Shown here piece after piece: positions 1 to 63,986 of a stretch of 64,000 bases of DNA (the first letter of the stretch is position 1; the number at the start of each line of letters is the position of its first letter). Made by a program: the position numbers and the translations under genes. Source of the stretch: an uncultured Aquimarina sp. (GTDB lineage Bacteria > Bacteroidota > Bacteroidia > Flavobacteriales > Flavobacteriaceae); assembly GCA_947498935.1 (NCBI GenBank), contig CANMMM010000006.1:128060-192059 (forward strand), written 5' to 3'. Under the pieces are notes generated by a model, which saw only the letters and a list, made by a program, of their open reading frames with translations, was not told the DNA's origin and ran no database searches.

Positions 1-855
1 CTCGTATTTATTACCAATAGTAGGAGTGTGGGTAATATAATCTACAGCTGTTACTAAAGAGTAGTAAATAAATGCCCTTGTTTTCTCTCTATCATAATCC
101 GCAGGATAGTGCCCTGCTTCAAATAATATAGTAGGTATTCCCATATTGGTGAGTGTGTCTCCTACACAATTTAGATTAAAGCCATCATCATATCTCCCTA
201 CAGCATTAGGAATATATTGCTGTAATACTGTGTTCATAGCTGAAATGATTTCCATACCTACTTTTCGGCAGGGAGTAATAGTGCGTTCAGCATCTCCAGC
301 AGGCGATAGAAATGAAATAGTAGCACTATTAGGTGTAGTTCCTGCGCCAAATATAGTACGCTGCCCATGTAAATTAAAAGCTACATCAGGCTGTATATGT
401 CGAATCACATCATGCAGAATTATACTTTCTTTCTGTGTTCGGTTTTGTGCATCTCTATTAAGATCTACTTGATTATAATTAAGTCGTGTATACGCTTTAG
501 CTCCATCAGGACTTAAAATAGGTATTATATATAATGTACATTTCTGTAAGATCGTAGTTGCCCATTCATTATCGGGAGCAATCAACGTATTTATAAAATC
601 AAATATAGCTTTGGTAGTCGTACTTTCATTTCCATGCATTTGAGACCAAAACAATAATTTTTTAGATCCAGTACCTAAGGTAATTAAATCGATAGGGGCA
701 TTGTTTTCTGAACTACCCAACGTAGTGATTGTAATTGCTGTTTTAGATTTTAATTTTTCTAATAAGGGCGCTATATGGCTTAGATGAATATATCTACCAG
801 ATAGTGAAGCTTCCTTGTTTTTTTTAAAGAAAGCAGATAATGTGTCTGTATGCAT
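1..855 (-). CDS. M14-family zinc carboxypeptidase-like protein; N-terminal part only, the ORF runs off the left edge of the window
   Basis: Own translation of the minus strand from the ATG at 855: MHTDTLSAFFKK...LLFWSQMHGNESTTTKAIFDF...NRDAQNR...NLHGQRT. It shows the HxxE zinc-ligand motif and overall M14/succinylglutamate-desuccinylase-like features. The open frame continues to position 1. It is absent from the ORF track because it is truncated. Confidence 0.7.
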   Translation of the reverse strand, partial: MHTDTLSAFFKKNKEASLSGRYIHLSHIAPLLEKLKSKTAITITTLGSSENNAPIDLITLGTGSKKLLFWSQMHGNESTTTKAIFDFINTLIAPDNEWATTILQKCTLYIIPILSPDGAKAYTRLNYNQVDLNRDAQNRTQKESIILHDVIRHIQPDVAFNLHGQRTIFGAGTTPNSATISFLSPAGDAERTITPCRKVGMEIISAMNTVLQQYIPNAVGRYDDGFNLNCVGDTLTNMGIPTILFEAGHYPADYDREKTRAFIYYSLVTAVDYITHTPTIGNKYE

Positions 856-917
856 AACTCAATTTATAAAAACAAAATTAAGATTGTTTCTCGAAGTATC
901 ATAACTGTAGTAAGGTA

Positions 918-1229
918 TTTACAAAAGTAAACAGAGAAGTGGTTCACAAATGTAAAAGAACTGCATTTACATTTGTAAACAAGGTGTTAGAGTCAAATGA
1001 GTTACTTCTGTAAACAATCATTAAGGTTTAATTCACAAAATAAAACTAAATACTTTTCTTAGATTTTTAAATCATATTAATATCATGCATATCAATTGAT
1101 TATATGTTTTTACCTGTAGCGTTTGTTTAATACTTTGTTAGAAGTGTTTACATATGTAAATTAGAGATGTTACTTTTTTTGTTTACTTTTGTAATATATA
1201 TGCTAACCAAAATAGTTTACAATGGTAAA
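918..1229. promoter_or_regulatory. Array of seven 14-bp palindromic sites (TTTACA-N2-TGTAAA type) upstream of, and overlapping, the start codon of the HTH gene
   Basis: Sites read at 918-931, 943-956, 966-979, 1001-1015, 1147-1160, 1182-1195 and 1216-1229. The last one overlaps the ATG at 1222. Examples: tttacatttgtaaa, tttacatatgtaaa, tttacaatggtaaa. Confidence 0.5.
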
Positions 1230-10485: not shown

Positions 10486-11556
10486 ATGGCAGGAAATACG
10501 TTTGGAAACCTTTTTAAGGTAACTACTTTTGGAGAATCACATGGAGTAGCTATTGGAGGTGTTATTGATGGATGCCCAGCTGGGGTAGCTATAGATTTAG
10601 AGGCGATACAAGCAGAATTAGATCGTCGTAAACCAGGGCAATCTGCTATAGTTACACAACGCAAGGAACCAGATACAGTAGCTTTTTATTCAGGTATTTT
10701 TGAAGGGGTGACTACGGGGACTCCGATTGGTTTTGTAATTAAAAATGCAAATCAAAAGTCGAAAGACTATTCACATATAAAGGATTCATACCGACCTTCG
10801 CATGCAGATTATACCTATGATCAGAAATACGGAATTAGAGATTACAGAGGCGGAGGACGTTCTTCTGCTAGAGAAACTGCCAGTAGAGTAGTGGCTGGTG
10901 CTATCGCTAAACAAGTATTAGATTCATTAGGAATTACATTCAATGCCTATGTTAGTGGTGTAGGTACTATACAATTAGGAGTGCCTCATACAGCATTAGA
11001 CCTGTCCCTTACAGAAAGTAATATTGTACGTTGTCCAGATCCAGCAAAAGCTGCTGAAATGGAGCAATATATAAAACAGATTCGTAAAGAAGGAGATACA
11101 GTAGGAGGGATTGTAAGTTGTGTAATCAGTGGAGTACCCGTTGGGCTTGGAGAACCAGTTTTCGATAAACTACACGCAGAATTAGGAAAAGCAATGCTAT
11201 CGATCAATGCTGTTAAAGGATTTGAATACGGTAGTGGTTTTGAAGGAGCTGCCCTTAAAGGAAGCGAGCATAATGATCTGTTTAACACAGACGGAACTAC
11301 TAAAACCAATTTATCCGGAGGTATCCAAGGAGGAATCTCTAATGGGATGGATATATATTTTAAGGTGGCTTTTAAACCTGTAGCTACGATCATGCAGGAT
11401 CAAGATACCATTGACAAAGAAGGAAATATCGTTACGATGCAAGGAAAAGGAAGACATGATCCATGTGTAGTACCAAGAGCAGTTCCTATTGTCGAAGCTA
11501 TGGCCGCACTAGTTATTGCAGATTATTGGTTATTGAATCGCACTATCAAAAAGTAA
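10486..11556 (+). CDS. aroC: Chorismate synthase
   Basis: [20 protein letters not shown]...[11 protein letters not shown]...[13 protein letters not shown]. The ATG at 10486 is preferred over the in-frame TTG at 10483 used by the ORF track. Confidence 0.95.
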
Positions 11557-11585
11557 ATTTTATAGCCATATCATACGTTAATATT

Positions 11586-11617
11586 ACGGTAATCTTAGTA
11601 AGATTGCCGTTTTTTTG
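11586..11617 (+). terminator. Rho-independent terminator after aroC
   Basis: Stem acggtaatctt / aagattgccgt (one G-U pair) followed by a T7 run. Confidence 0.7.
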
Positions 11618-11654
11618 TATTTAATTTATATCTTCGGCGGTTTGCGTTCTACAA

Positions 11655-11697
11655 TAGAATACTATTCTAAGTAGTATTCAGTACGTTGAGTATTCTA
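11655..11697. promoter_or_regulatory. Candidate operator: palindrome tagaatactattcta plus two further AGTATTC half-sites upstream of the DAACS transporter gene
   Basis: Read directly: tagaatactattcta (11655-11669), gtattc (11674-11679), gtattc (11690-11695). Confidence 0.3.
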
Positions 11698-11777
11698 ATA
11701 GGAGAGCAAACAAAAGACGTTTCATAACTAATCATACAAAGAGGAAGCTTTTTCCTTAAAAAACTTAGCAACTTTTC

Positions 11778-13100
11778 ATGAAGAAATTAGCATTGCACTG
11801 GCAGATTTTAATCGGAATGGTAGTAGGTGTACTATTCGGTTTTTTGATGACTCAATTTACGTGGGGTAAGGTATTTGTAGGCAATTGGATCAAACCTTTA
11901 GGAACTATTTTTGTCAATCTCCTAAAATTGATAGCAGTTCCACTAATTCTAGCATCGCTCATCAAAGGAATTTCTGATTTAAAAGATATTTCTAAATTCA
12001 AACGAATAGGAGGGAGAACTATCATTATTTATATCCTTACTACCGTCGTAGCGATCACCATTGGTTTGGTATTAGTTAATATATTGAAACCGGGGGATGG
12101 AATTACGACGACTACGATAGAGAAATTGACCACTGCATATGCGGGTAACTCTAAAATTTCTGAACGTATTGCCGAAGCAGGCCGACAGCAACAAAGTGGG
12201 CCGTTACAATTTGTAATAGATATGGTGCCGCAGAATGCTGTAGCGGCAATGAGTAATAATAAGCTGATGTTACAAGTTATTTTCTTCGCTATTTTTCTAG
12301 GAATAAGTATGCTGTTGATCAAAGAAAAACAAGCAGCTCCCTTAAAACAATTTTTTGATAGCTTAAATGAAGTGGTACTTAAAATGGTAGATTTGATTAT
12401 GCTATCAGCACCTTATGCAGTTTTTGCCTTATTAGCTAATGTAGTAGTCACCTCTGATGATCCTGATATTTTAATAGCCTTGCTGCGATATGCAGGAGTG
12501 GTATTTGTGGGGCTAGCTCTAATGATTGCAGTATATTGTATATTGGTCATGCTTATCACCAAAAAATCACCAATTTGGTTTTTAAAACAGATCAGCCCCG
12601 CACAATTATTGGCTTTTTCTACCAGTTCTAGTGCAGCCACATTACCTGTTACGATGGAGCGTGTAGAAGAACACATCGGGGTGGATAAAGAAGTATCTAG
12701 TTTTGTACTGCCAGTAGGAGCTACGATTAATATGGATGGTACGAGTCTGTATCAAGCTGTAGCTTCTGTATTTATTATGCAAGTATTATGGCCAGAAGGG
12801 CTTACATTCAGTAATCAGATTACGATTGTAGTAACGGCATTATTAGCCTCTATAGGCTCCGCTGCTGTACCTGGTGCAGGAATGGTAATGCTCGTAATCG
12901 TATTAGAAGCTATCGGTTTTCCCTCAGATAAATTACCCATTGGTTTAGCCCTCATTTTTGCAGTAGATAGACCTTTAGATATGTTGCGTACTACTGTAAA
13001 TGTTACAGGAGATGCCACAGTGTCTATGTTGGTCGCTAAATCTGTAGGTAAATTAGGAACTCCAAAAGTAAAGGAGTGGGATGACCATTATAAACAATAG
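11778..13100 (+). CDS. Dicarboxylate/amino acid:cation symporter (DAACS, GltP-like)
   Basis: 440 aa, multi-pass. Motifs SSSAATLPVTM, GATINMDGTSLYQ and DRPLDMLRTTVNVTGD are typical of the SDF/DAACS family. Confidence 0.85.
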   Translation: MKKLALHWQILIGMVVGVLFGFLMTQFTWGKVFVGNWIKPLGTIFVNLLKLIAVPLILASLIKGISDLKDISKFKRIGGRTIIIYILTTVVAITIGLVLVNILKPGDGITTTTIEKLTTAYAGNSKISERIAEAGRQQQSGPLQFVIDMVPQNAVAAMSNNKLMLQVIFFAIFLGISMLLIKEKQAAPLKQFFDSLNEVVLKMVDLIMLSAPYAVFALLANVVVTSDDPDILIALLRYAGVVFVGLALMIAVYCILVMLITKKSPIWFLKQISPAQLLAFSTSSSAATLPVTMERVEEHIGVDKEVSSFVLPVGATINMDGTSLYQAVASVFIMQVLWPEGLTFSNQITIVVTALLASIGSAAVPGAGMVMLVIVLEAIGFPSDKLPIGLALIFAVDRPLDMLRTTVNVTGDATVSMLVAKSVGKLGTPKVKEWDDHYKQ

Positions 13101-13221
13101 CGAGCATCCATCTTAATAAATTGCTCATTAATATAATACACGCCGTTTATAGTGCGTGTATCCTCCTTAATAAAAAGTAACTAATAGGTACAATCAAGTA
13201 CTAAAAAAGATTCGGTAGCTT

Positions 13222-14673
13222 ATGGATACAAAGCACCAACCACATGCTGCTATGCATGCAGTATACGATACAGAAAGTTTTAGAACAATAGGTCAGGAAC
13301 TCATTGAGTTACTAGCTGATCATTTGGATGCGGTACAGCAGCAAGCCAAGCCTGTACTTTCGTATCGAAGCCCAGAAGAAGAACTTGCATTTTGGAAAGA
13401 AGATTTTAAAACAGAGGCTTCTACAGAGATGCTTTCTTTTTTTCGTACAATACTAGCACGCTCTATCTCTGTGCACCACCCACATTACATGGGGCATCAA
13501 GTATCTGTACCTGCACTCATAGGTAGTTTATCGGGTCTCGTATCAGATGTTCTGAGTAATGGTACAGCTGTTTACGAAATGGGAATGGCTTCTAATGCGA
13601 TTGAAAAAGTAGTAACTGATTTTGTAAATAAACAATTAGGGTATGATACTACTAGTGGAGGGTTTCTAACCTCTGGTGGTACATTGGCTAATCTTACAGC
13701 ATTATTAGCAGCACGTAGTGCTAAAGCTCCTACGGCTGTATGGGAAAATGGACATACAGATCAATTAGCTGTACTGGTATCTGAAGAAGCACATTATTGT
13801 ATCGATCGAGCAGCTAGAATTATGGGATTAGGAACACAAGGGATTATAAAAATACCTGTAGATGATCAATTTCAGATGCAAACTAGCATGTTAGAATCTA
13901 AGTTAGAAGAAGCTAAACAACAAGGGCTGCATGTCATTGCACTTATTGGTTGTGCCTCTTCTACAGCTACAGGTGCGTATGATGATCTCACAGCATTAGC
14001 AGCCTTTGCGAAGCAGCATAATATATGGTTGCATGTAGACGGTGCACATGGAGGGGGAGTTATTTTCTCAGAAAAATATGCGCATTTGGCTCAAGGAATT
14101 GAGCAAGCAGACTCTGTAGTCATTGATTTTCATAAAATGCTGCTCACCCCTGCATTAACCACTGCTTTAGTATTTAAAAATCATAAAAACGCCTATGCTA
14201 CCTTCCAGCAAAAGGCACAATATCTCTGGAATGCGCAAGAATCTACAGAATGGTACAACTCTGGTAAACGTACATTCGAATGCACCAAACTGATGATGGG
14301 GATGAAGGTATATAGCATTCTAAAAATGCATGGCAAAGAAGTTTTTGGCAAAAATGTAACATACTTATATGATATTGCCAAAACGTTTGCTACTCAATTA
14401 CAAGACCATCCAGATTTTGAATTATTGACTTTTCCACAAGCCAATATTGTTAATTTTAGATTCATCAATTGCGATTCCACAAAAATAGATTATATCAATG
14501 ATCTGATACATGAACATATCATTGCAGAAGGACAATTCTATATCGTACAAACCACCGTACAATCCAAACGATTTTTAAGAGTAGCGATTATGAATCCTTT
14601 GACTAAAGCAGCTGATTTTACTACATTATTAGCACATATTATAACGATATATAAAACCTCAATACAGGCGTAA
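13222..14673 (+). CDS. PLP-dependent group II amino-acid decarboxylase
   Basis: 483 aa. SGGTLANLTALLAAR, HVDGAHGG, and DFHKML as the PLP-lysine motif. Confidence 0.8.
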   Translation: MDTKHQPHAAMHAVYDTESFRTIGQELIELLADHLDAVQQQAKPVLSYRSPEEELAFWKEDFKTEASTEMLSFFRTILARSISVHHPHYMGHQVSVPALIGSLSGLVSDVLSNGTAVYEMGMASNAIEKVVTDFVNKQLGYDTTSGGFLTSGGTLANLTALLAARSAKAPTAVWENGHTDQLAVLVSEEAHYCIDRAARIMGLGTQGIIKIPVDDQFQMQTSMLESKLEEAKQQGLHVIALIGCASSTATGAYDDLTALAAFAKQHNIWLHVDGAHGGGVIFSEKYAHLAQGIEQADSVVIDFHKMLLTPALTTALVFKNHKNAYATFQQKAQYLWNAQESTEWYNSGKRTFECTKLMMGMKVYSILKMHGKEVFGKNVTYLYDIAKTFATQLQDHPDFELLTFPQANIVNFRFINCDSTKIDYINDLIHEHIIAEGQFYIVQTTVQSKRFLRVAIMNPLTKAADFTTLLAHIITIYKTSIQA

Positions 14674-14980
14674 AAATCATATAAGACCAATGTTTAGGCA
14701 ATTTGTGACACCTATATATATATAGACATTTATCTATTATCATTTGATTATCAGAATGTTATTTTTTGATATACACAAACGGAGTTTACAGTTCACAAGG
14801 ATTGTATGATTTTGTGTAACTATTTATAAATCATTTATTTATAGTCGATATGTATTGTGTCGTGATGACTGCATAAAATAGGGGGAAAACCCCTATTTGA
14901 TTTCTAGTGAAACTCCCTTTAATTTGTATCATAAATATAAATACCTTTGAATCAAACACTAACACTTAAACACACACGTC

Positions 14981-15160
14981 ATGAAACGGCTTTTTCTACC
15001 CTTAGCGTTGATGGCATTTGCAGTCATATGCTTATGCATCGTACACATAGATAATGTAAATAAATTAGATGAAGAGTTTAATCAGCTCAGAGAAAAACAT
15101 CAAGTAGAACATCATCAGAAAGAAATCAAAACAACGAAAACTAGGTTAACAAACAATTAG
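14981..15160 (+). CDS. Small (59 aa) membrane-anchored protein, paralogue 1
   Basis: Own translation: MKRLFLPLALMAFAVICLCIVHIDNVNKLDEEFNQLREKHQVEHHQKEIKTTKTRLTNN. It is below the ORF-track cutoff and clearly similar to the product of 15801-15953. Confidence 0.45.
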   Translation: MKRLFLPLALMAFAVICLCIVHIDNVNKLDEEFNQLREKHQVEHHQKEIKTTKTRLTNN

Positions 15161-15495
15161 AAATAAATTCAATTACAATTTTATACTATTATTACGATAC
15201 AACAACCACATTTCCTGTAACAATAGTATGTAGCATCGTATAGATACAACCATACCCTTTTTTAAACATTTGCAGGCACAACTAACCAATAAATAAGCAA
15301 ATGAATTTGTATCAAAGTTGTACAGTGCTATCGTTAGATGCTTTTAGTTTAGGCGCTATTTATACATGTATCTAACGTAACTGTACGCTTGATAAAAAGA
15401 AGGGTGTTGATTCTTACGATCACCTATACAAAATGAAGAACATAAACTCATGTACCTATTCCTGAAAGGTAATTGGCACTTATTTCTAAGCAAAG

Positions 15496-15531
15496 AAACC
15501 CTTTGATATAGTTAGTATCAGAGGGTTTTTT
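15496..15531 (+). terminator. Rho-independent terminator inside the long 14.7-15.8 kb spacer
   Basis: Stem ccctttgata / tatcagaggg (one G-U pair), loop tagttag, then a T6 run. Confidence 0.6.
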
Positions 15532-15800
15532 GTACGAAAAACTAAAGAAAACACCATTCCTTAAGTGACTCTAGGATCAATATTTAACATTAATTATACT
15601 TTTCTTTTTCTTGTAAGATAGAGTATTATGTGATTAATTAACTTTTCTGTAACAGTTGTAAGTAACGAATTCTAGTTATATCATTACGAATTCTAGAACA
15701 GAGGTAAATAAAGTACCATCTTATGTTAATTTTAGGATATAATTAACGGTTGTCGTTTAATTATTACACACACATTACAAACCCCCAAAATAAAAATAAC

Positions 15801-15953
15801 ATGAAACAATTTTTACTTCCTATTGCATTATTAAGTTTTGCGATTTCTTGCCTAATGTACGTACATATGGATAATATGGAGTTAATTGACCAGAAAGTAA
15901 CGGAATTAGAGCATGAGCAAATAAAAATGGATACTTTTTTAAGAGCATCCTAA
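15801..15953 (+). CDS. Small (50 aa) membrane-anchored protein, paralogue 2
   Basis: From the internal ATG of the 15750 ORF: MKQFLLPIALLSFAISCLMYVHMDNMELIDQKVTELEHEQIKMDTFLRAS. It aligns with paralogue 1 along its whole length. Confidence 0.45.
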   Translation: MKQFLLPIALLSFAISCLMYVHMDNMELIDQKVTELEHEQIKMDTFLRAS

Positions 15954-15968
15954 ATAGGACTTAAGAAT

Positions 15969-16391
15969 TTAAGGTTGGTCAATAAAAAGCGCTTTCAATT
16001 CAGGCGTTGGAATTGTACAGCTGCTTTTTTTGCCAAACCATTTATATCTATTTCTAGACACAACATCATATATATAATCTCTGACTGTTTTAGGTATCAG
16101 TAGAAATACTGATAAGAAGGGATATCCACCAGACAGCTGTTTTGCAATTTGTAAAGCAGCTGTCGATTTATGGTAATAAGTCGTAGTAGTTTCTGGTAGA
16201 ATTAATAGAATCGTATCCAATTTAGTGGCATCTATAGCACGTGCAGCAGCCAATTGTTGCCCAATCTCACTCTGTAACGAAGCGTAGCGAAATACATCTT
16301 TATGATCATGCTTAATAATAAAATTAACAGCATCATTACATAAATTGCAGACCCCATCAAATAATACTACTTTTTTGCCTTCTAACTCCAT
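15969..16391 (-). CDS. DCC-family thiol-disulfide oxidoreductase (DUF393)
   Basis: N-terminal FDGVCNLCNDAVNFIIKHD matches the DxxCxxC DCC signature. 140 aa. Confidence 0.8.
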   Translation of the reverse strand: MELEGKKVVLFDGVCNLCNDAVNFIIKHDHKDVFRYASLQSEIGQQLAAARAIDATKLDTILLILPETTTTYYHKSTAALQIAKQLSGGYPFLSVFLLIPKTVRDYIYDVVSRNRYKWFGKKSSCTIPTPELKALFIDQP

Positions 16392-54108: not shown

Positions 54109-57100
54109 TTATTGCATTTTTATGGCACCGATATCTACATTCCATAATTTTTGATTGTACGCAGGTATCTGATTGCTGATCAGGTCTTCAGCAGTTTTTT
54201 TATACTCCGCCCATTGCTTGTCTAATTCCGCCTTTCGATCCAGTACAGCTTGCGTAATTTTAGGCAAACTATTATTCGCCTGATTCATCAAAAACAGGTA
54301 TTCTGCAGAGAATTTATTTTCAAAATTCTCTACATCGTCATACGCCTGAGAGCGACGTTGTACCATTGCTGTATCCCATGCTTTTATAGCCTTTAACAAC
54401 GCCTTTCCTTCTTGGATTAACACTGTATCCTTATGTGTTTCTTTTAATTGTTGGATCGATGTACGAATATCTGTAGCCATGCGATGTAATAGGTTTACTT
54501 TCTGATGCATATCGGTAGCACTCGCTTCGAATTGGAGCATCAAGGCATCATAGGCCTCATATGTTTCTTTCGTTACCTGATAATGCGGATTTTCTTTGAT
54601 GATTGCCTTGGTAGTATAGGTATTGCCATCATAGGTTAATTGCAGCGTATACGTTCTGGGGATCACGCGATGTCCATTAAAACTCGCCTCTATATACACT
54701 TTAGGCACTCCAGGAACAATTGGGTGTTGCATATTCCACACAAAACGATTCAATCCTTTTTTCTTAGGCAATTGCGGCGCTCTAGGTGCACCGCCACCAG
54801 TATGAGGGATATATTTCTTGTCCTTTTCTGATGTATAACTATTAATTACTGTTCCTTTGCTATCCAATACGTTTAGGGTAACTGCTTTGGTGCTATCAAT
54901 AGTTGGTAACTCGTAGTACAACTCGATACCATTCGTCGGATTTACTCCCACAAAATCTTGCATCCCTTTAAAAGTATCTAACTTGCCATTCATTTTACTT
55001 CCCCAATGCCCATAATAGATAGGCGCAGGCTCATATACCTTGACACCCTTATTTTTTGGCGTATACTGCGATAATAACGATAGGTTATCCAAAATCCAAA
55101 ATGCCCTACCAGATGTCGCTACAATCAAGTCATTGCGATGTACTTTTATGTCTAAAATAGGAGTAATGGGCAGGTTTCGCTGAAATGACTCCCATTGTGC
55201 GCCTCCATCAAATGAAATATACATACCCAGTTCTGTACCTGCATATAACAATCCTTTCTTAGTAGCATCCTCGCGTACCACTCGTGTATGTGCGCCATAA
55301 GGAATTCCCTTGTTTATCGATTTCCACGATTTTCCATAGTCATCACTTTTATAAAGAGCAGGAGTGTAGTCCCCCAATTTATAGCGAGTCGTAGCAATGT
55401 ACACCACAGCAGGATCATGCGGAGATACTTCAATCGCATTGATCAAGGTTTCTTCCAGTTGTTTCGGAGTGATATTTTGCCAAGTAGTACCATTATCCCT
55501 TGTTATATGTACCAAACCATCATCACTTCCCGAATAAAATACGCCTTTTTCATGAGGAGATTCTACTAAGTAACTGATCGTACCATAGTTTTCTGCTCCT
55601 ACCGCTTCATTCGTGTACGGACCACCGCCTTTGCCTTGTTTGGCATCGATATCCCTTGTCAGATTTGGAGAAAAATGTGTCCAATTGACGCCTAGATCTT
55701 TTGATTGCAGTATTCGTTGTGCCGCATGAAAAATGGTATTCGGCTCATGTTGTGACCAAACGATCGGTGCATTCCAATTGTATAGGTATTTCATATCTCT
55801 AGCCGCTTTTCCCAGATACTGAATAGGGGAGGCCATGATCTTAGTACTTACCATTTCTTTCATATCTAAAGCTTCGATCGTACCCAAATAACTACCACCC
55901 ACTGTCACAGTAGAATTATTGGGATCAAATGCCAAAAAGGCACTCTCTCCACCCGCAGCCTTTGTCCAATTACGCTCAGCAATTCCATAGCCCGTCATAT
56001 TCATACTCGCTATTTTGATAGAAGAATTGTCTTGCTGACCCGCATAGATATTATACGGCACCAAATTATCTACATTGATCCTATAAAATTGCCCTGTAGG
56101 CATGATATTTTGCGTAGACCATGTTTTTCCAGAATTAAATGAAATCGCAGCCCCACCATCATTGGCAATCACCATATTCTTAGAATTCGTAGGATGTATC
56201 CATAAATCATGAAAATCACCATGTGTTCCTGTAATTTTCTGCCAGCGTTTCCCACCGTCTTTAGAACGATATGCAGATGCACTCAGCACATAGACCGTTT
56301 CTTCATCCTTCGGATCGATAAACAACTCAGTATAATACCATGCACGTTGCGTCAATCGATTATCTCCACTGACCAGCTTCCAACTTTTACCCGCATCCGT
56401 GGATACATACAATCCGCTACCATCCTTTTGGGTATCGCTTTCTACGAGCGCATATACTTTACTACTATTGCTTCTACACACTGCTATGGCCAGTTTTCCT
56501 AATGTTTTAGGCAATCCTTTGTCTAATTTGGTCCATGTTTCGCCTCCATCTTCCGATTTATACAATCCACTGCCTTCGCCACCGCTGATCATTTTCCAAG
56601 GCGTTCGTTGGTGGTGCCATAGTGCTGCATATAGTATTTGCGGATTATTCATATCGATCACCAATTCCGATGCACCCGAAAATTGATTCACAAAGAGTAT
56701 TTGTTTCCACGTTTTCCCACCATCTATCGATTTATACACCCCACGTTCTGAAGTAGGAGTCGCATATTTTCCTTGTGCCGCAACATATACGATATCGGGA
56801 TTCGTAGGATGAATGACTATTCTAGAGATTTGTTCAGTTTTGGACAATCCTATAGACTTCCATGTTTTACCAGCATCTGTAGATTTATATACCCCATCAC
56901 CATAGGAAGTCATGACACCACGAATTGCATGTTCACCCATTCCCACATACAGGATATTGGGATTGCTTTCAGAAGCCGCGATAGCACCTACAGACCCCGT
57001 TTTAAAGAAACCATCACTGATATTCTTCCAATGTTGTCCCGCATCTTCCGTTTTCCACAGTCCACCGCCAGTAGTCCCCATATAATAGGTGAGAGGGTCA

Positions 57101-57249
57101 TTTACGATACCAGTAGCACTCACAGAACGTCCCCCTCTAAAAGGACCAATATTTCGGTATTTCATCGAAGAAAAATAAGCATCTGCCTCTTGGGCGATAT
57201 TCACTACAGGCACTGCTAACAGTAGCATACAAACAATCCTTAGTCTCAT
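54109..57249 (-). CDS. Secreted BNR/Asp-box repeat protein (sortilin/VPS10-like double beta-propeller)
   Basis: 1046 aa with a signal peptide and at least 9 Asp-box motifs, including [56 protein letters not shown] and SFDGGAQW. Confidence 0.8.
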
Positions 57250-57447
57250 AGGTACGGGTTTTAATAAGCGCCTAAAGTAACAAGAATAATTCGCTTTGTA
57301 GCGGGGTAGTGAGAGAGAACTTTTCCACAGTTTATTAAGAGAAGGAAGGAATAATTGTAGTTATAACGATGTAGGAGAAAATGGTATAATATAAGGAGAG
57401 AAAGTGTAGTTATTTAGGGGTTAGACATAAGCCAGAATAACCAAAGT

Positions 57448-57792
57448 CTATAAATCAATAAGGTATTTTATTCTAAAATAGCATTCTTTAGCTAATGGTT
57501 CTAACGATTCTCCATTGGGTGTAATAGTATAATCAAGTGATCTGTTCATAAAAGAAGCATATGTTTCTTCCAAATAATGATTTGTTTTTTCTTTTGGTAT
57601 ATGCATAAGCTTATAGATAATTTCCAAAATTGCAAGATGATGCATACTTAGTCCATCTAACCCTATACTTTCTAATCCGTACAATAATTGACTATGTTTA
57701 AGATCTTGTACTATTAGATCAATGATTATTTGTTCATTTTCCATAAAACTTTCAAATTTTATTTCTGAAATCCACCTTTCAAATTGTGACAC
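57448..57792 (-). CDS. Hypothetical protein at the left edge of the AT-rich island, divergent from the HTH-methyltransferase operon
   Basis: 114-aa ORF with an ATG start. No motif recognised. Its composition matches the island rather than the flank. Confidence 0.45.
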   Translation of the reverse strand: MSQFERWISEIKFESFMENEQIIIDLIVQDLKHSQLLYGLESIGLDGLSMHHLAILEIIYKLMHIPKEKTNHYLEETYASFMNRSLDYTITPNGESLEPLAKECYFRIKYLIDL

Positions 57793-57806
57793 CTTACGAT
57801 AAAAAA

Positions 57807-57874
57807 TTCCGATTATCAGAACAAATATACCGAAATAAAGACAAAATAAAAACTAATTATTCAGAAAATCGGAA
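57807..57874. promoter_or_regulatory. Inverted repeat in the divergent promoter region (candidate operator for the small HTH protein)
   Basis: ttccgattatcagaa (57807-57821) and ttcagaaaatcggaa (57860-57874) are reverse complements at 13 of 15 positions. A third related ctgattat lies at 57883-57890. Confidence 0.4.
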
Positions 57875-57920
57875 TAAAATATCTGATTATGTAGATTTAT
57901 AACCATAAAAACAGACAAAA

Positions 57921-58139
57921 ATGACTGATTTAGGTCTATATCTTTCTAGAAAATCTGTCAACAGATCTGATGTTTCTCGAAAAACAGGTATTAGTAAAAC
58001 CCGTCTTAGCGAATTGGCAAATAACAAGAAAACCAAATTAAGAGCAGATGAATTATATTTAATAGCACTTGCTATTGATGTTGATCCTTGTGAAATATTT
58101 GAAGAAGTTTGTAAAGAATTAAAACTTGTCGAGAAATAA
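57921..58139 (+). CDS. Small XRE-family HTH protein (R-M controller-protein-like position)
   Basis: 72 aa. SRKSVNRSDVSRKTGISKTRLSELANNKKTKLRADELYLIALAI fits the HTH_3 pattern. The stop is 2 nt before the methyltransferase ATG. Confidence 0.8.
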   Translation: MTDLGLYLSRKSVNRSDVSRKTGISKTRLSELANNKKTKLRADELYLIALAIDVDPCEIFEEVCKELKLVEK

Positions 58140-58141
58140 CT

Positions 58142-59257
58142 ATGGATATTTTAATTGAAGACAAATTATCATTGCATACGAATTTAAATAATGTTTCCAA
58201 TACTCCTCTAGGGTGCGATATTTTTAGTGGAGCAGGAGGGATGAGTCTTGGTGCAGAAATGGCGGGAATAAATATTTCTTTTGCTGTAGAAAATGACAAA
58301 TATGCTGCGGATACTTTTATTAAGAATCATAGCTCGTCAAAAGTTATTGTAGAAGATATAAGAAATGTTAAGCCTACAGAATTAATTTCTAAAAACCCTT
58401 TTGTACTATTCGGAGGACCGCCTTGTCAAGGCTTTTCGTTATCAAACACAGTTACTAGAAATTCTAAAAATGAAAAAAATAGTTTGTTTGAGGAATTTTT
58501 AAGATTTATCGAAGAGCTTGAACCACAATGGTGTGTTTTCGAAAATGTTGAAGGTTTTAGAAGTTTTCAAAAAGGTAAAGTTGTAAAAATTTTAAAAAAA
58601 CGATTAGAAGATTTAGGATATACTGTGAATTTTGATGTTTTAATAGCATCTGATTATGGAGTTCCTCAAGACAGGAAACGTTTTTTTATGATTGGAAATA
58701 AAAATGGAATAAAATTTAAATTTCCTCAGCCATTAACTAATAAATTCACAGTAGCAGATGCAATTTCAGATTTACCAAATTTACAGAATGGTGATTTTAT
58801 TGAATCTCTACCTTATAATGGTTTGGCTAATAACGAATTTGCTAATACTATGAGAGCAAAATCAAACTTCTCTATGCAGAATTATGTTTCTAGAAATAGA
58901 GATTACGTATTGGAGAGATATAGGCATATAGGACAAGGAGAAAACTGGAAAGCTATACCAGATGAATTAATGGCAAATTATGCTAACAAAAACAATTGTC
59001 ATTCAGGAATATATAAGCGCTTAAACTCTGAAAAACCATCGGTAGTTATTTCTAATTACAGAAAAAATATGTTGATACACCCTTTTGAAAACAGAGGTTT
59101 ATCAGTTAGAGAAGCTGCAAGATTACAAAGTTTTCCTGATGATTTTATTTTTCAAGGTACATTAATGTATATGCAACAACAAATAGGTAACGCTGTTCCT
59201 CCTTTATTAGCTAAAGCACTATTTGACCAAATTAATGAAATGACATATAATGGCTAA
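58142..59257 (+). CDS. DNA (cytosine-5)-methyltransferase
   Basis: All canonical m5C motifs in order: I DIFSGAGGMSLG, IV GGPPCQGFS, VI FENVEGF, VIII QDRKRFF, IX RLQSFPDDF, X GNAVPP. Confidence 0.95.
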   Translation: MDILIEDKLSLHTNLNNVSNTPLGCDIFSGAGGMSLGAEMAGINISFAVENDKYAADTFIKNHSSSKVIVEDIRNVKPTELISKNPFVLFGGPPCQGFSLSNTVTRNSKNEKNSLFEEFLRFIEELEPQWCVFENVEGFRSFQKGKVVKILKKRLEDLGYTVNFDVLIASDYGVPQDRKRFFMIGNKNGIKFKFPQPLTNKFTVADAISDLPNLQNGDFIESLPYNGLANNEFANTMRAKSNFSMQNYVSRNRDYVLERYRHIGQGENWKAIPDELMANYANKNNCHSGIYKRLNSEKPSVVISNYRKNMLIHPFENRGLSVREAARLQSFPDDFIFQGTLMYMQQQIGNAVPPLLAKALFDQINEMTYNG

Positions 59258-61379
59258 TAACAGAAAAGATTCTATAACGTTTAATTTTGATGTCAGCGCA
59301 TATAGGTTACTAGGTAGAGAACTTATTACAGATAGAATAACTGCTTTATTTGAGTTAGTTAAAAATGCTTATGATGCAAATGCTGAAAATGTTTCAGTTG
59401 AATTCCAAAATATTAATCCATTAAGTACCGATTCCAAAATAATTATTAAAGATGATGGTATTGGAATGCAATTTTCTGATATTAAAAATAAATGGATGGT
59501 AATTGGTACAAGTAGTAAAAGAAGAGAGCGACTTTCTCCACCACCACATAGAAGAAAAGTGTCGGGAAAAAAAGGTGTTGGCAGGTTTGCAGTTGATAAA
59601 TTAGGAGAAAAATTAATATTAAAAACTAAAAAAAAGGAAGACAAACAATTATTATGTTTGGAAACTGATTGGTCACATTATTCTGGATTAGAGAATTCTC
59701 AATTTAAATTAAACTTTGAAGATGAAAAACCTTTTTTTACAGATGTTGAAAATAGTTATTGGTATGAAGATTCACTTAAAAATAATCAAGGAACAATACT
59801 AGAAATTTCTTTGGTAAGTGAGATATGGACAAAAGATGATATAAATAGGGCATACAAAGAATTATCTAAATTAGTATCTCCAAATACAGATATTAAAAAA
59901 ACATATCCATTTAATATTACTATTAAAGCCCCTTATGAAGGGTTTGAAAATAAAATTGTAAAGACACAATTAATAGATTTTGCTACAGAGAAAATTCAAT
60001 TATCATATAATATTGATAAAGAGACACAAGAAATATTACAGTATAACAAAATTGAAAAGTACTTGTCTATAAAAAATGTTCCGAAAAGACCTTGTGGTTT
60101 ACTTAAATTAAACATTTATTATTTTAACGAGGAAGACAAAGCTAGATATAGAAAACATTTTGGAACAACATTAGATGGTATAAAAATTTATAGAGATGGC
60201 ATTATTACAACACCATTTGCCGAATATGTTTCAGATAGAAATAAGAAAAAAGATATATTAGGAATTGATAAGAGAAGGTGGTCTGGTTTTTTCGATAGGC
60301 TCTCTAATAGGGATTTGTTAGGTTACGTTGAAATTACAGATGAAAATAATCCGAATATTATAGAATCAACTAATAGACAGGGTTTTGTAGATAATGAGGC
60401 TTGGGGGGAATTACATTCTTTTGTTATAGAGCAAATTAGTCAATTAGAACAATATTTGAGTAATTTAAAAAAGACTCAGAGAAAAGCAACTAAATCAAAT
60501 TTAGGAGGAACTAACAAAGATTTAAAAGAACTAAAGAAAGATATTGCTTTAATAAAAAAAGATGCGTCTCCTGTAGTCAAAGAAAAGCTAAAGAATATTG
60601 AAGCTAACTTAGGGAAAATACAAGGTAGTGTAAATAAAAGTATTAAGGAGTATGCTAAATTAGAGAAGGAAACCAAACAAAAAGAGAACCTCTTTTTTAG
60701 CCTTGTTTCTCTTCAAACTTATGCTGCTATGTTCTCTCATATGACAAAGCATACTATAGGTCATATTTTAACAAGTGCGGAATATTTTAATAATAATTAC
60801 CCTAATCCAAAATTAGAAAATAGGTTTATTAAAATATCTAAGAATATTTATAATGAAATGCTTAAACTCAGAAAAGGTGTAGATTTTATGCTTAAATACG
60901 CAAAGTCAGATACTGAGTTTGAAGAAATTAATTTAAAAGACCTTGTAACTAATCTATTTAATGATATCTATTATGATAGGTTTTTAAAAGAAAATATAAA
61001 TACAGAAATAGCAATTAATGAAGAACTAATTTTAAATTATAATAGAAAATCTATTGAAGATATTTTTGATAATTTAATTTCAAATTCTATAAAAGCATTA
61101 AAAGGAATTGATAATAAACACATTAAATGTAGTAGTATAACAACTAAGAATGATTTAACAATTTTATTCTCTGATAATGGAATAGGTATTAAAGAGGAAG
61201 ATAGATTTAGGATTTTCGACATTTTCTTTACTAAAACATCTGAAGATGGAGGAGCTGGAATGGGACTTTATATGGTTAAAACTAGAGTAGAAGCAATGCA
61301 AGGAAATATTGAGGTAGTTGAAAATGAGTTCAAACCTAATGGAGCTACTTTAAAAATCACATTACCATTTAAAAAATAA
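59250..61379 (+). CDS. Dual-GHKL protein: N-terminal MORC/MutL-like ATPase module, a middle region, a coiled coil, and a histidine kinase (DHp plus HATPase_c)
   Basis: N-terminal Bergerat motifs: ELVKNAYDA (res 35-43), DDGIGM (68-73), GKKGVGRFA (106-114). A K/E-rich coiled coil spans about 400-480. H-box-like FSHMTKHTIGH (495-505). HK boxes: N DNLISNSIKA (607-616), G1 DNGIGI (642-647), F FDIFF, G2 GGAGMGL (667-673). The start overlaps the MTase stop by 8 nt. Confidence 0.8.
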   Translation: MANNRKDSITFNFDVSAYRLLGRELITDRITALFELVKNAYDANAENVSVEFQNINPLSTDSKIIIKDDGIGMQFSDIKNKWMVIGTSSKRRERLSPPPHRRKVSGKKGVGRFAVDKLGEKLILKTKKKEDKQLLCLETDWSHYSGLENSQFKLNFEDEKPFFTDVENSYWYEDSLKNNQGTILEISLVSEIWTKDDINRAYKELSKLVSPNTDIKKTYPFNITIKAPYEGFENKIVKTQLIDFATEKIQLSYNIDKETQEILQYNKIEKYLSIKNVPKRPCGLLKLNIYYFNEEDKARYRKHFGTTLDGIKIYRDGIITTPFAEYVSDRNKKKDILGIDKRRWSGFFDRLSNRDLLGYVEITDENNPNIIESTNRQGFVDNEAWGELHSFVIEQISQLEQYLSNLKKTQRKATKSNLGGTNKDLKELKKDIALIKKDASPVVKEKLKNIEANLGKIQGSVNKSIKEYAKLEKETKQKENLFFSLVSLQTYAAMFSHMTKHTIGHILTSAEYFNNNYPNPKLENRFIKISKNIYNEMLKLRKGVDFMLKYAKSDTEFEEINLKDLVTNLFNDIYYDRFLKENINTEIAINEELILNYNRKSIEDIFDNLISNSIKALKGIDNKHIKCSSITTKNDLTILFSDNGIGIKEEDRFRIFDIFFTKTSEDGGAGMGLYMVKTRVEAMQGNIEVVENEFKPNGATLKITLPFKK

Positions 61380-61385
61380 TAAATT

Positions 61386-61982
61386 ATGACTGTAACTTTT
61401 GTAATTATAGATGATAATGAAGAAATAAGGGAACACGCTTTATTATTTACTCTTGAAGATAAATACCAAAATATCATTTTTTTTTCCAATCCAAGTGAAG
61501 GGTTACAATACATAAAAGGTAATTTAGATATAAATTTAATAGTCTTATTAGACATCGAATTTTCTGATAATGACAAAAAGAATGGACATATACTTCTTGA
61601 AGAAATCTATAACGCATCTGCTTTAATACCTGTTATTTTATGGAGCGGTATAAATGAAACTAAAGAAGAGTTCAGTGATTTTATTAATAATCAGGCTTTT
61701 GGTTTTTTGAGCAAAACTTCTACCATAAAAGAATCAATGGTAATAATTGATAAAGCATATAATCACTTAAAAAATAGTTTAGATAATACGATTGAAGATT
61801 GGATTATTAGTAATGAAACAGACAAAGAAAAACCTATTTATTTAACTGCTGATGGCGAAACTTATTCTTTAAATGATATTCTAAAAGAAATTAGACTACA
61901 AACGCCCATTGGTAAAGAGTTTTCATCAAAACTAAACGCATTGACCATAGATTTATTATTACGTAAAAAAGAGAATTTATAA
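61386..61982 (+). CDS. CheY-like receiver (REC) domain protein with an ~85-aa uncharacterised C-terminal extension
   Basis: The acidic pair D9-D10 (IIDDNE), D56 (VLLDIEF), S87 (ILWSG) and K110 (FLSKT) fall at the CheY D12/D13, D57, T87 and K109 spacing. No DNA-binding output domain recognised. Confidence 0.75.
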   Translation: MTVTFVIIDDNEEIREHALLFTLEDKYQNIIFFSNPSEGLQYIKGNLDINLIVLLDIEFSDNDKKNGHILLEEIYNASALIPVILWSGINETKEEFSDFINNQAFGFLSKTSTIKESMVIIDKAYNHLKNSLDNTIEDWIISNETDKEKPIYLTADGETYSLNDILKEIRLQTPIGKEFSSKLNALTIDLLLRKKENL

Positions 61983-62584
61983 TGGTTGATGTTATTGGGT
62001 TATTTGATAATGAAGATGATTCTTTAGGGCTTTTTTTTCATCTTTGCTATGAAGATTTAATAAGCTATTTAGAAAATAATCCTATAAATATATCTTATTT
62101 TAATAGCCGTAGGCTTAATGAAATTTCTATCTCATTAATAACTGATTCGTTAGGTAAATTTATAACTTTAGCATATTCTCACGGTAGTGAAACAGAATTA
62201 TTAAGAGAAAATATTCCATACATTTCTACAGAAGTTAATATCGATAAATTTTCTGATTCTTTTTTTTATACCTGCTCTTGTCATACTGGAAAAGTTTTAG
62301 GAGAAAAATTAATAAATAATGGAGCCTTAAACTATATTGGTTATCGAGATAAATTTAAAGTTTGGGGATTCAATATGAATCCCTACATTGATTGTGCTAA
62401 TTATGGAATTAAACTTTTCTTCGAAAACCATTGCACAAATGATATTATTACTTTAATGAAGGAAAAGTATACTGAACATATCGATAATTACGAAAATGAT
62501 ATTTTTGGTGCAGCTATGTTGGTTTCAAATAGAAATAGCCTTGTTAGTTTTGGAAATAACATTTCAATTAACGATTTAAGTTGA
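61982..62584 (+). CDS. Hypothetical 200-aa protein with a candidate caspase/CHAT-like (clan CD) His-Cys dyad
   Basis: The ATG overlaps the upstream TAA (TAATG). A hydrophobic strand then H-G (FITLAYSHGSE, H67) and a hydrophobic strand then C-x-x-G (FFYTCSCHTG, C100) lie 33 residues apart. This is the order and context seen in caspase/legumain/CHAT folds. The CDS call is solid; the fold assignment is motif-level inference only. Confidence 0.55.
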   Translation: MVDVIGLFDNEDDSLGLFFHLCYEDLISYLENNPINISYFNSRRLNEISISLITDSLGKFITLAYSHGSETELLRENIPYISTEVNIDKFSDSFFYTCSCHTGKVLGEKLINNGALNYIGYRDKFKVWGFNMNPYIDCANYGIKLFFENHCTNDIITLMKEKYTEHIDNYENDIFGAAMLVSNRNSLVSFGNNISINDLS

Positions 62585-63115
62585 AATTTTAAAAAAAAAG
62601 ACTTTGTAAAATCAGAGTTTAAAAACTTCAATGCTGAAAGAGTTACTAGATTTAGCATCTTCATCATCGGAATATCCAGCAGCAGTAAAGTATTGTTTAA
62701 AAAGTTCAGGGTATGATTGGGGCAGATAATATTGTACAACGAGCTGCTTAAGTTCTTGTATAATTATGTAAAATAGAGCCCGCGTTTTTTACCCAGATGA
62801 AGCGTTTGCAAAATGGCTTCAGAAAACTCTCGTGAAAACAATATAAAAGTAAGGTTTATAAGGCTAGTTTAAAATAATCTTACTACAATATAGCGACTGC
62901 GGCGTACATTTGGGAAATTTTATGCTATTGCGAAAACCTTCACGAGAATCACGTAAAAATTTTTATCACGTATATTTTATCGAATACGCGATTTATAAAC
63001 TACCTAGCAGAATATTTCAACAATGGAATTATGATGTGATGACCCGAGTAGCTACGATTACTAGGATATTTTACATAGTATTACATTATAACTACTAATG
63101 TGGCAGGCGTGTCGC

Positions 63116-63209
63116 AAAACGGCTTTGACATAATATCTGTCGATCGATATAATACGCTGGCGCGTACTTATATCTGATATTATATCAAATACGCGGTATC
63201 CGCCGTTTT
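63116..63209. other. Long imperfect nested hairpin (~94 nt) in the non-coding tail of the island
   Basis: Outer arms: aaaacggc+tttgacataatatc (63116-63137) pair with gatattatatcaaa (63176-63189) and gccgtttt (63202-63209), separated by a 12-nt bulge. Inner hairpin: gatataatacgc (63146-63157) pairs with gcgtacttatatc (63162-63174). Confidence 0.6.
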
Positions 63210-63370
63210 ACTTCAATAAACACATTTGTACTATAATTTATATTATGTAAAATAGAGTTATTCAGAACCTCCTTTTCTTTCTTATTTTATCCCACTGCAC
63301 AATAGTTACAAAAAATACTAGTTTAATTATTTTTTGTAAATTAGAATGCGATTCGTCGCAATCAGACATT

Positions 63371-63513
63371 GAAGTGATGTACTCTTATTTTATTTCTGCG
63401 ATAAATAAAGGATTTGTGACCAAATGAGTATTGTTTGTGCTATAGTAGCATTACAGCACTCAAAAACTACAACAGCCCGTTTTTATAGCTAAATAAAAAA
63501 AGTATAACACTTC
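63371..63513. repeat. MITE-like repeat, diverged complete copy at the right border of the island
   Basis: gaagtgatgtactcttattttatttctgcg...gatttgtgaccaaatgag...gcattacagcactcaaaaact...aaaaaaagtataacacttc. Confidence 0.75.
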
Positions 63514-63536: not shown

Positions 63537-63986
63537 ATGCAGTTCTATTCGTTTTTATGTGCTTTTATATGTTTTTTCTGTAGCCATACAGATACACCTA
63601 CCATTACACCAACTTCTTATATTGGCAAATGGAAAATTGAAGGCGGTTCTGTGATAGAACTCTATCAAAAGGATCAATTATTCTATGGCAAAATCTGTAA
63701 ACGTACCGCAAATCCGAGATGTAATCTGAATGGTTTAGATAACAAAAACCCTGACAAAACATTGCGCTCACGATCATTAATCGGTATTGATATCATAAAC
63801 AATCTATCCTATGATACTGAAGATCAGGAATTATCTGGCGGTACGATCTATAATGCAGACAGCGGAAAAACATACACCGTAAAAATGTGGATTACTACAG
63901 ATGATGTAAACACCTGTTTTATAAGAGCCTATAAAGGATTTCTATTCAAAACCTTTACTGCTACACGCGTTTTGGAGCATGATTAA
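63537..63986 (+). CDS. DUF2147-family secreted protein
   Basis: Signal peptide, then GKWKIEGGSVIELYQKDQLFYGKI...NKNPDKTLRSRSLIG...GGTIYNADSGKTYTVKM, typical of DUF2147. Confidence 0.75.
   Translation: MQFYSFLCAFICFFCSHTDTPTITPTSYIGKWKIEGGSVIELYQKDQLFYGKICKRTANPRCNLNGLDNKNPDKTLRSRSLIGIDIINNLSYDTEDQELSGGTIYNADSGKTYTVKMWITTDDVNTCFIRAYKGFLFKTFTATRVLEHD

Follow-up and report, generated by a model that had tools for sequence, protein, structure and literature searches.

Ambrosia, HEF_HK proteins and the Aquimarina cassette

The closest experimentally validated system to the one described here is Ambrosia of Pseudomonas aeruginosa, which blocks phages and comprises genes for an XRE protein (AbrR), an N6 methylase (AbrA), a kinase with HATPase_c_3 and HATPase_c domains (AbrB), a receiver (AbrC) and an HNH protein (AbrD). 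All five genes are needed for defence, which is abolished by the substitutions N40A in AbrB and D60A in AbrC. Ambrosia expression rises on infection, which also induces reporters inserted into the cluster. A winged helix has been ascribed to AbrC, and the authors prefer a model in which the receiver controls transcription. Phage gains no protection from methylation by AbrA, host toxicity was not observed, and the system was reported solely in Gammaproteobacteria (van den Berg et al. 2025, bioRxiv 10.1101/2025.09.30.679545). Here, a stretch of 64,000 nucleotides (nt) from an uncultured Aquimarina sp. (assembly GCA_947498935.1, contig CANMMM010000006.1), referred to below as the window, was analysed, and the same layout was found in it; i.e. 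an XRE gene, a methylase gene, a gene for a HATPase_c_3 + HATPase_c kinase of 709 amino acids (aa), a gene for a small receiver of 198 aa and a gene for a putative effector of 200 aa.

A comparable arrangement had been described earlier from computational work only. Proteins consisting of HATPase_c_3, a DHp region (HEF_HK) and HATPase_c adjoin a Response_reg_2 gene with 91.6% linkage, and their genes usually lie downstream of a C5 methylase gene with Vsr/HNH_2 nearby, in both Proteobacteria and Bacteroidetes. They were proposed to have descended from paraMORCs and to play a regulatory role, and several of the neighbour families were left unnamed (Bellieny-Rabelo et al. 2021, PMC8011034). A first-pass annotation of the window had presented the cassette as an undescribed system, which was an overstatement, as the triad was described in 2021 and Ambrosia validated in 2025. 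Judged by its sequence, the cassette is a variant of the Ambrosia kind and not an undescribed class. What appears to be new is that the fourth gene, after methylase, kinase and receiver, is caspase-like and that a constant nuclease is lacking; no literature description was found of a caspase-like partner in methylase/kinase/receiver cassettes, the neighbour families left unnamed in 2021 being unchecked. We estimate at about one half the probability that the window carries a horizontally acquired conflict or defence cassette of the Ambrosia kind, with a relay to a protease. By analogy, it is probably a defence cassette; this role is plausible because the 709-aa kinase is homologous to AbrB.

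The four-gene unit and its sensor kinase

Homologues were collected from one genome per GTDB species by a scan limited by peptide patterns, so that its count of species is a lower bound, and at least 162 species were found to encode a relative of the 709-aa kinase. Synteny was assessed in 80 loci kept from other genomes. The order methylase, kinase, receiver, 200-aa protein was contiguous and tightly spaced in 78 of the 80, the remaining two being cut by contig ends. Because the same contiguous order recurs so consistently, the arrangement is not due to chance, and the four genes form one unit; the concern of the first-pass annotation that synteny might be absent outside the source genome thus fell away. 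In the window, the five co-oriented genes were joined exactly as had been read beforehand, with junctions of +2, -8, +6 and -1 nt, and the four core genes are probably translationally coupled. The left border needed correction, since the position given for it, 57448, is the end of a minus-strand open reading frame (ORF) of 114 aa and the five-gene set begins at 57921. The 72-aa protein was indeed an XRE helix-turn-helix (HTH) protein (HTH_26, 7e-10; HTH_3, 3e-6; Pfam), but not one of the core components, since an orthologue was present in just 5 of 79 loci. About nine further loci contained a different small XRE-like ORF overlapping the methylase start, as judged by eye from the alignment. The XRE gene is therefore an accessory of a subclade, outside the conserved core.

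The 709-aa protein contained HATPase_c_3 (PF13589, 1.4e-25) at residues 31-142 and a C-terminal HATPase_c domain at residues 600-708 (Pfam), which confirmed that a MORC-like GHKL ATPase is joined to a histidine kinase in one protein. Between a putative S5-like region and HATPase_c come a coiled stretch and then a DHp helix. Among 81 kinase sequences, the N-terminal ATP site (E35, N39, D68xGxG, G106/G109/G111), the motif T374-N-R-Q-x-F379 and the N and G boxes of the C-terminal half were invariant; we tentatively take T374-N-R-Q-x-F379 to be a MORC-type S5 motif. Two phospho-acceptor candidates had been named, of which H497 in the DHp helix held (81/81 invariant) and H501 did not, as position 501 was Thr in 53/81 sequences. 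By its predicted domains, the protein is a soluble sensor kinase with a paraMORC-like GHKL N-terminal half. It resembles the paraMORC/MORC proteins (Iyer, Abhiman and Aravind 2008, PMC2292703) in the HATPase_c_3 GHKL domain followed by a motif of the T-N-[KR]-Q-x-F type, and in being linked in genomes to genes for cytosine methylases and Vsr, but its C-terminal partner is a histidine kinase and not a nuclease, TIR or helicase.

Comparison with AbrB was made using the first 399 residues printed in the Ambrosia supplement, with which residues 21-381 of the window kinase were 28% identical (E 6e-32, BLASTP). N40 of AbrB corresponds to N39 of the window kinase, and D60 of AbrC to D56 of the window receiver. 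Between the two receivers, the receiver domain and its Asp aligned weakly (hhalign probability 8.6%), while the window receiver's C-terminal domain did not align with the AbrC C-terminus. The cassette also differs from Ambrosia in that its methylase is a C5-cytosine enzyme (PF00145, TIGR00675) and AbrA an N6-adenine enzyme, in that its effector has a clan-CD fold and no similarity to the HNH nuclease AbrD, and in that the family is found mainly in Bacteroidota, with the XRE gene missing from most relatives.

The kinase N-terminus also matched the BbrUII/HgiDII restriction enzyme model NF050001 (4e-20) and PADLOC REase_II (7e-14), as would be expected if the 709-aa protein were the restriction enzyme of a conventional Type II restriction-modification (R-M) system. 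A full-length match that included the nuclease part was not obtained. Only some 125 residues at the N-terminus were covered (for NF050001, positions 3-128 in a profile of 659), and the NF050001 score of 71.8 bits fell far short of the cut-off, which is 550. What follows in the protein is a kinase with DHp + HATPase_c, and Pfam revealed neither a family nor a motif of nucleases, leaving this explanation very improbable.

With the HEF_HK proteins of Bellieny-Rabelo et al. (PMC8011034), the kinase shares the HATPase_c_3 + DHp + HATPase_c architecture, the receiver gene downstream and the C5 methylase gene upstream. Since R-M-associated paraMORC proteins linked to histidine kinase and receiver modules were described in that study, the earlier statement that such ATPases lack these modules was wrong. 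PF19191 and PF19192 were matched neither by the window protein at E <= 1 nor among the 25 most-matched families for 20 kinases and 49 receivers, a negative which presumes that both models were within the Pfam copy searched. The receiver instead matched PF00072 and not PF19192 (Response_reg_2), the residue following the phospho-acceptor His was I, A or M and is acidic in HEF_HK, and a caspase-like neighbour was not characterised in PMC8011034. Because PF19191 and PF19192 were unmatched and the residue after H497 was non-acidic, the window cassette is, at the sequence level, best placed beside the 2021 family as its sister branch, distinct from the family that those two Pfam models cover. The profile searches placed the kinase, the receiver and the 200-aa protein in no named system; the kinase N-terminal half is homologous to AbrB of a known relative.

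The 371-aa methylase was a complete m5C DNA methyltransferase, as had been read at first: it matched DNA_methylase (8e-72, Pfam), TIGR00675 dcm (3e-62, NCBIfam) and MTase_II (5e-119, PADLOC), and the FSGAGG, PPCQ, ENV, QDRKR and GNAVPP motifs were all present. The PCQ, ENV, QxR and GN motifs were kept in every full-length homologue. Among the relatives, two exchangeable classes of methylase were distinguished, with 49 and 27 loci.

The CheY-like identity of the 198-aa receiver was likewise upheld, with a Response_reg match at residues 6-116 (Pfam) and with D10 and the phospho-acceptor D56 invariant in 80/80 sequences; PF00072 was matched by 48 of 49 receiver relatives. After the receiver domain came a conserved C-terminal domain some 75 aa long, in which E137, W139, R170 and G176 were nearly invariant. 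A profile of this domain had no Pfam match, with no HTH or winged-helix family matched in Pfam or PDB and nothing credible among PDB sequences (best E 0.32). A structure model of the receiver predicted from its single sequence was unusable (predicted local distance difference test, pLDDT, 38.8).

The caspase-like protein and the proposed relay

The 200-aa protein was matched by none of the families in the libraries Pfam, PADLOC, NCBIfam and PHROGs. An AlphaFold2 model built from an alignment of 99 family members reached a pLDDT of 96.1 and a predicted template modelling score (pTM) of 0.93. In a Foldseek search of this model against PDB, the top 30 matches were all clan-CD enzymes with a probability of >=0.99. 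The best of these, i.e. gingipain R, separase, caspase-8/-11/-6/-1, the SAVED-CHAT filament and Craspase TPR-CHAT, had a probability of 1.00 and a query TM of 0.54-0.66. Matches in the viral structure library BFVD were metacaspase-like, clostripain and caspase-domain proteins. In the model, H67-G68 follow the strand 60-65 and C100 follows the strand 93-98, and D9, H67, G68, C100 and G120 were invariant in 80/80 homologues. In the predicted structure, H67 and C100 occupy the positions of the clan-CD catalytic dyad, so that the caspase/CHAT-like His...Cys dyad proposed beforehand was borne out at the level of the fold. The protein is thus a candidate standalone clan-CD cysteine protease, and a catalytic role is suggested because the dyad is invariant.

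Sequence comparison alone did not reveal this relationship: a profile of the 200-aa family gave no matches among PDB sequences, and only the fold comparison succeeded. Of 58 relatives, four gave sub-threshold matches to Peptidase_C25, the best with an E of 0.0037, and one UniRef homologue was labelled 'CHAT domain-containing protein'. The family comprised 1,315 clusters at 50% identity (E <= 0.001); among the best 150 clusters, nearly all members were standalone proteins of about 200-220 aa, with a few shorter fragments, one protein of 282 aa and no sign of fusion. D9 lies where the first strand of the model ends, and the equivalent position in clan-CD enzymes contributes to the S1 pocket. Because D9 is invariant at this position, the protein may prefer a basic P1 residue. 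With SAVED-CHAT/PCaspase, Craspase TPR-CHAT and the gingipains (C25), the protein shares the clan-CD fold and the His-Gly ... Cys dyad. It differs from them in being only 200 aa long and standalone, without a sensor or adaptor domain. The SAVED-CHAT/PCaspase and Craspase examples are triggered effectors, and in the window cassette, to judge from its genes, a phosphorelay appears to exert the control that cyclic nucleotides or a CRISPR complex exert elsewhere.

Covariation between the parts of the cassette was examined as pairwise identities over 76 loci, shared ancestry being uncorrected. The methylase correlated with the kinase N-terminal half (rho 0.73; partial rho 0.65 given the C-terminal half) and not with the C-terminal half (partial rho -0.11 given the N-terminal half), and the methylase class agreed with that of the nearest neighbour by kinase N-terminal half in 75 of the 76 loci. 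The kinase C-terminal half tracked the receiver domain (0.39) more closely than the receiver C-terminal domain (0.18), whereas the protease tracked the receiver C-terminal domain (0.40) more closely than the receiver domain (0.23). This suggests a chain of partners leading from the methylase to the kinase N-terminal half, from the kinase C-terminal half to the receiver domain and from the receiver C-terminal domain to the protease.

The scheme that follows, the defence role included, is one that we infer; the domains, invariant residues, gene order, homology to AbrB and fold on which it draws are given above. Methylase, paraMORC-kinase and receiver are common to the related cassettes and the last gene differs, being an HNH gene in Ambrosia, a clan-CD protease gene here and a longer regulator gene in a Campylobacter plasmid variant; for this reason the 709-aa protein would be the sensor, the receiver the relay and the protease the output. 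The C5 methyltransferase would mark host DNA. The paraMORC-type GHKL+S5 half of the kinase would engage DNA or the methylase and report infection or unmodified DNA, and sensing would drive autophosphorylation of H497 by the C-terminal half. The phosphoryl group would pass from H497 to D56 of the receiver, whose C-terminal domain would then switch on the protease, which is the least certain step. The protease would cleave host or phage targets, possibly after a basic residue, and infection would stop. Where present, the XRE protein might act as an optional controller of cassette expression. The full version of this scheme, in which a methylation-coupled paraMORC clamp acts through a His-Asp phosphorelay on a minimal caspase-like protease and activates it directly and post-translationally, is put forward only tentatively.

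Several points weigh against this reading. The cassette family is known here from its genes alone, and PADLOC contains models for neither the receiver nor the protease and, apart from REase_II at the N-terminus, none for the kinase. Among the curated protease families (C14, C25 or CHAT), none is matched above threshold by the 200-aa protein. Neither a self/non-self role of methylation nor an abortive outcome can be assumed, since in Ambrosia phage was not protected by methylation and toxicity to the host was not observed. Direct activation of the protease is conjectural because the receiver C-terminal domain matches nothing in Pfam or PDB, and the contrast in covariation, uncorrected for ancestry, was weak within each methylase class.

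The receiver might, as proposed for Ambrosia, act as a transcriptional switch instead; i.e. the phosphorylated receiver would bind DNA and induce the operon, and the protease would be active once made. Such a model was put forward for Ambrosia, with its infection-induced reporters and the winged helix ascribed to AbrC, and an operator-like inverted repeat is present upstream of the window operon. Its two 22-nt arms, ATTCCGATT...AATCGGAAT, look like a candidate operator for the XRE controller protein, and conserved sequence blocks were found at the same upstream region in four related genomes (L002-L005). On the other hand, the receiver C-terminal domain has no HTH or winged-helix match and does not align with the AbrC C-terminus, and the overlap of the receiver and protease genes and their covariation fit a protein complex as well. 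For this cassette, transcriptional switching is rather doubtful.

Detocs, which consists of the kinase DtcA, the receiver buffer DtcB and the receiver-effector fusion DtcC, is likewise a defence system whose signalling centres on a His-Asp phosphorelay and whose effectors can be exchanged. The window cassette differs from Detocs in having a methylase and a paraMORC sensor half, in having a single receiver gene without a receiver 'buffer', and in that receiver and effector are separate proteins. In PADLOC, the kinase matched only REase_II, at its N-terminus, and the receiver matched nothing.

Distribution and surroundings of the cassette

The cassette was found in Flavobacteriia, Bacteroidia (gut/rumen Prevotella, Bacteroides), Cytophagia, Sphingobacteriia, Chitinophagia and Saprospiria, and beyond these in Kapaibacterium/Ignavibacteria-like metagenome-assembled genomes and in Treponema/Spirochaetes. 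The closest named relatives of the window proteins were from Tenacibaculum maritimum. A full cassette on a 4.8-kb contig binned as a Thermoplasmatota archaeon (L019) had gene identities to the window genes similar to those of Draconibacterium-type loci, and this archaeal instance is probably a binning error. The same four genes were found, with 20-29% identity, on the Stenotrophomonas rhizophila plasmid CP065518.1 (L081, 4628-11008). That cassette lies in an unannotated stretch (the plasmid table has four features for the whole record), and a TnsA-like (Tn7-type) gene is located about 750 nt downstream of it. The conjugative Campylobacter coli plasmid NZ_CP109820.1 (L082, 6004-10457) carried a related 732-aa HATPase_c_3/HATPase_c kinase, a dcm gene on the opposite strand and a 340-aa response regulator with a C-terminal part of about 240 aa without assigned identity; this regulator aligned neither with the 200-aa family nor with the receiver C-terminal domain. 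The kinase was matched by 41 Campylobacter plasmid records. A tblastn search of plasmids with the 200-aa protein gave no match at E <= 0.001, no complete phage was found to carry the cassette, and E. coli showed no match to it at the DNA level.

That no nuclease gene accompanies the HTH/methylase pair was confirmed both in the window island, where none was found, and among the relatives, where none was constant. A search by clustering of 784 flanking ORFs and by Pfam and PADLOC scans of the 137 nearest neighbours yielded only sporadic Vsr (6/137, Pfam), HNH_2 (4/137, Pfam), McrB-like AAA_5 and OLD-like AAA_15/21; the 25 top families listed in the PADLOC scan were all methylases. The variable neighbours of the relatives were extra C5 methylases, Vsr, HNH_2, AAA_5, AAA_15/21, DUF3226, integrases and ordinary metabolic genes. 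Directly 3' of the caspase-like gene, an HNH_2 gene was observed in the Flavobacterium-type loci L008 (11318-12531), L009, L010 and L012, so that a protease and an HNH nuclease occur together in these cassettes; the HNH_2 gene of L008 is itself followed by a Vsr gene. In a group of loci from rumen/gut Prevotella and Bacteroidales (L030-L041, about 11400-16100), L030 has, after the cassette, genes for a second C5 methylase, for an AAA_5 (McrB-like) protein of 692 aa and for a protein of 486 aa. The 692-aa family was found downstream of the cassette in 14 loci, with the second methylase there in about six and the 486-aa family in about five; upstream, some loci showed an AAA_15/21 ATPase and a protein of 210 aa. 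The surroundings of these loci are a defence-island-like context.

The four genes might alternatively serve housekeeping or epigenetic signalling, as a cytoplasmic two-component system that reads the state of DNA or nucleotide levels, with the 200-aa protein as a processing protease or a non-catalytic partner. The relay genes are annotated in databases as 'sensor histidine kinase' and 'response regulator', and a regulatory role was proposed by Bellieny-Rabelo et al. (PMC8011034). The patchy distribution, the horizontal transfer across phyla, the exchange of methylase class and the variable mobile or R-M neighbours all speak against such a function, as does the homology of the kinase to the validated defence protein AbrB, while the invariant His/Cys dyad argues for catalysis. 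Housekeeping is thus decidedly unlikely.

In the window, the cassette lies in an island (57300-63400) with a GC content of 26-30%, compared with about 38-42% in the flanking 10 kb. The features of the island are listed in Table 1. It is bounded by a gene for a 1046-aa repeat-rich protein (54109-57249, minus strand) and an ORF at 63537. About 950 nt 3' of the 200-aa gene contain no ORF of >=100 aa. At 63125-63153, upstream of the ORF at 63537, a perfect 12/12 sigma-70 consensus (TTGACA-17-TATAAT) was observed; promoters of Bacteroidota usually differ from this consensus. Within the 64-kb window, no tRNA gene, no integrase and no convincing flanking direct repeats were found. The divergent 114-aa ORF matched no family in any profile library scanned, and an ORF with 36% identity to it (683-1009, minus strand) was found at the same relative position in one related locus (L074).

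Table 1. Coordinates of genes, domains and sites in the low-GC island (positions in the window)
Feature	Position (nt)	Strand	Length	Remark
Divergent ORF within low-GC island	57448-57792	-	114 aa	Membership in cassette uncertain
Inverted repeat	57806..57875		two 22-nt arms, 26 nt apart	82% complementary; upstream of XRE gene
XRE HTH gene	57921-58139	+	72 aa	ORF list
C5 DNA methyltransferase gene	58142-59257	+	371 aa	ORF list
GHKL/histidine kinase gene	59250-61379	+	709 aa	ORF list
Kinase HATPase_c_3	59340-59675			Residues 31-142
Kinase H497	60738-60740			DHp helix
Kinase HATPase_c	61047-61373			Residues 600-708
Receiver (response regulator) gene	61386-61982	+	198 aa	ORF list
Receiver Response_reg	61401-61733			Residues 6-116
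Receiver D56	61551-61553			Phospho-acceptor
Receiver C-terminal domain	61749-61979		~75 aa
Clan-CD protease candidate gene	61982-62584	+	200 aa	ORF list
Protease candidate H67-G68	62180-62185			After strand 60-65 (model)
Protease candidate C100	62279-62281			After strand 93-98 (model)

The location of the cassette in a low-GC mobile island, and its occurrence on plasmids, would also suit a selfish addiction element, in which methylation would silence the sensor, while loss of the cassette or dilution of the methylase would leave sites unmethylated and release the relay, so that the protease would kill the cell (post-segregational killing) and defence would be a by-product. The strict linkage of the methylase to the cassette and its covariation with the sensor half of the kinase can be read in the same way. 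In Ambrosia, however, host toxicity was not observed, and selfish addiction, which is unlikely here, is compatible with a defence cassette and does not exclude it.

Ambrosia has been read as a two-component switch for an R-M-like nuclease, and in the present cassette the nuclease is swapped for a protease. This suggests that the conserved core of Ambrosia-like cassettes is the methylase together with the paraMORC-kinase sensor, and it raises the question of what role a DNA methylase plays where the output cannot distinguish DNA. If the proposed relay to the protease is correct, epigenetic self/non-self sensing would be converted to proteolysis without a nuclease, and the Ambrosia-type sensor, instead of being the regulator for an R-M-like nuclease, would be a module of general use whose effectors can be swapped. 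A phosphorelay would then join the known triggers of caspase-like proteases in bacterial immunity, and the Bacteroidota, including gut/rumen Prevotella/Bacteroides and the fish pathogen Tenacibaculum, would gain a candidate defence system that is missed by current PADLOC models.

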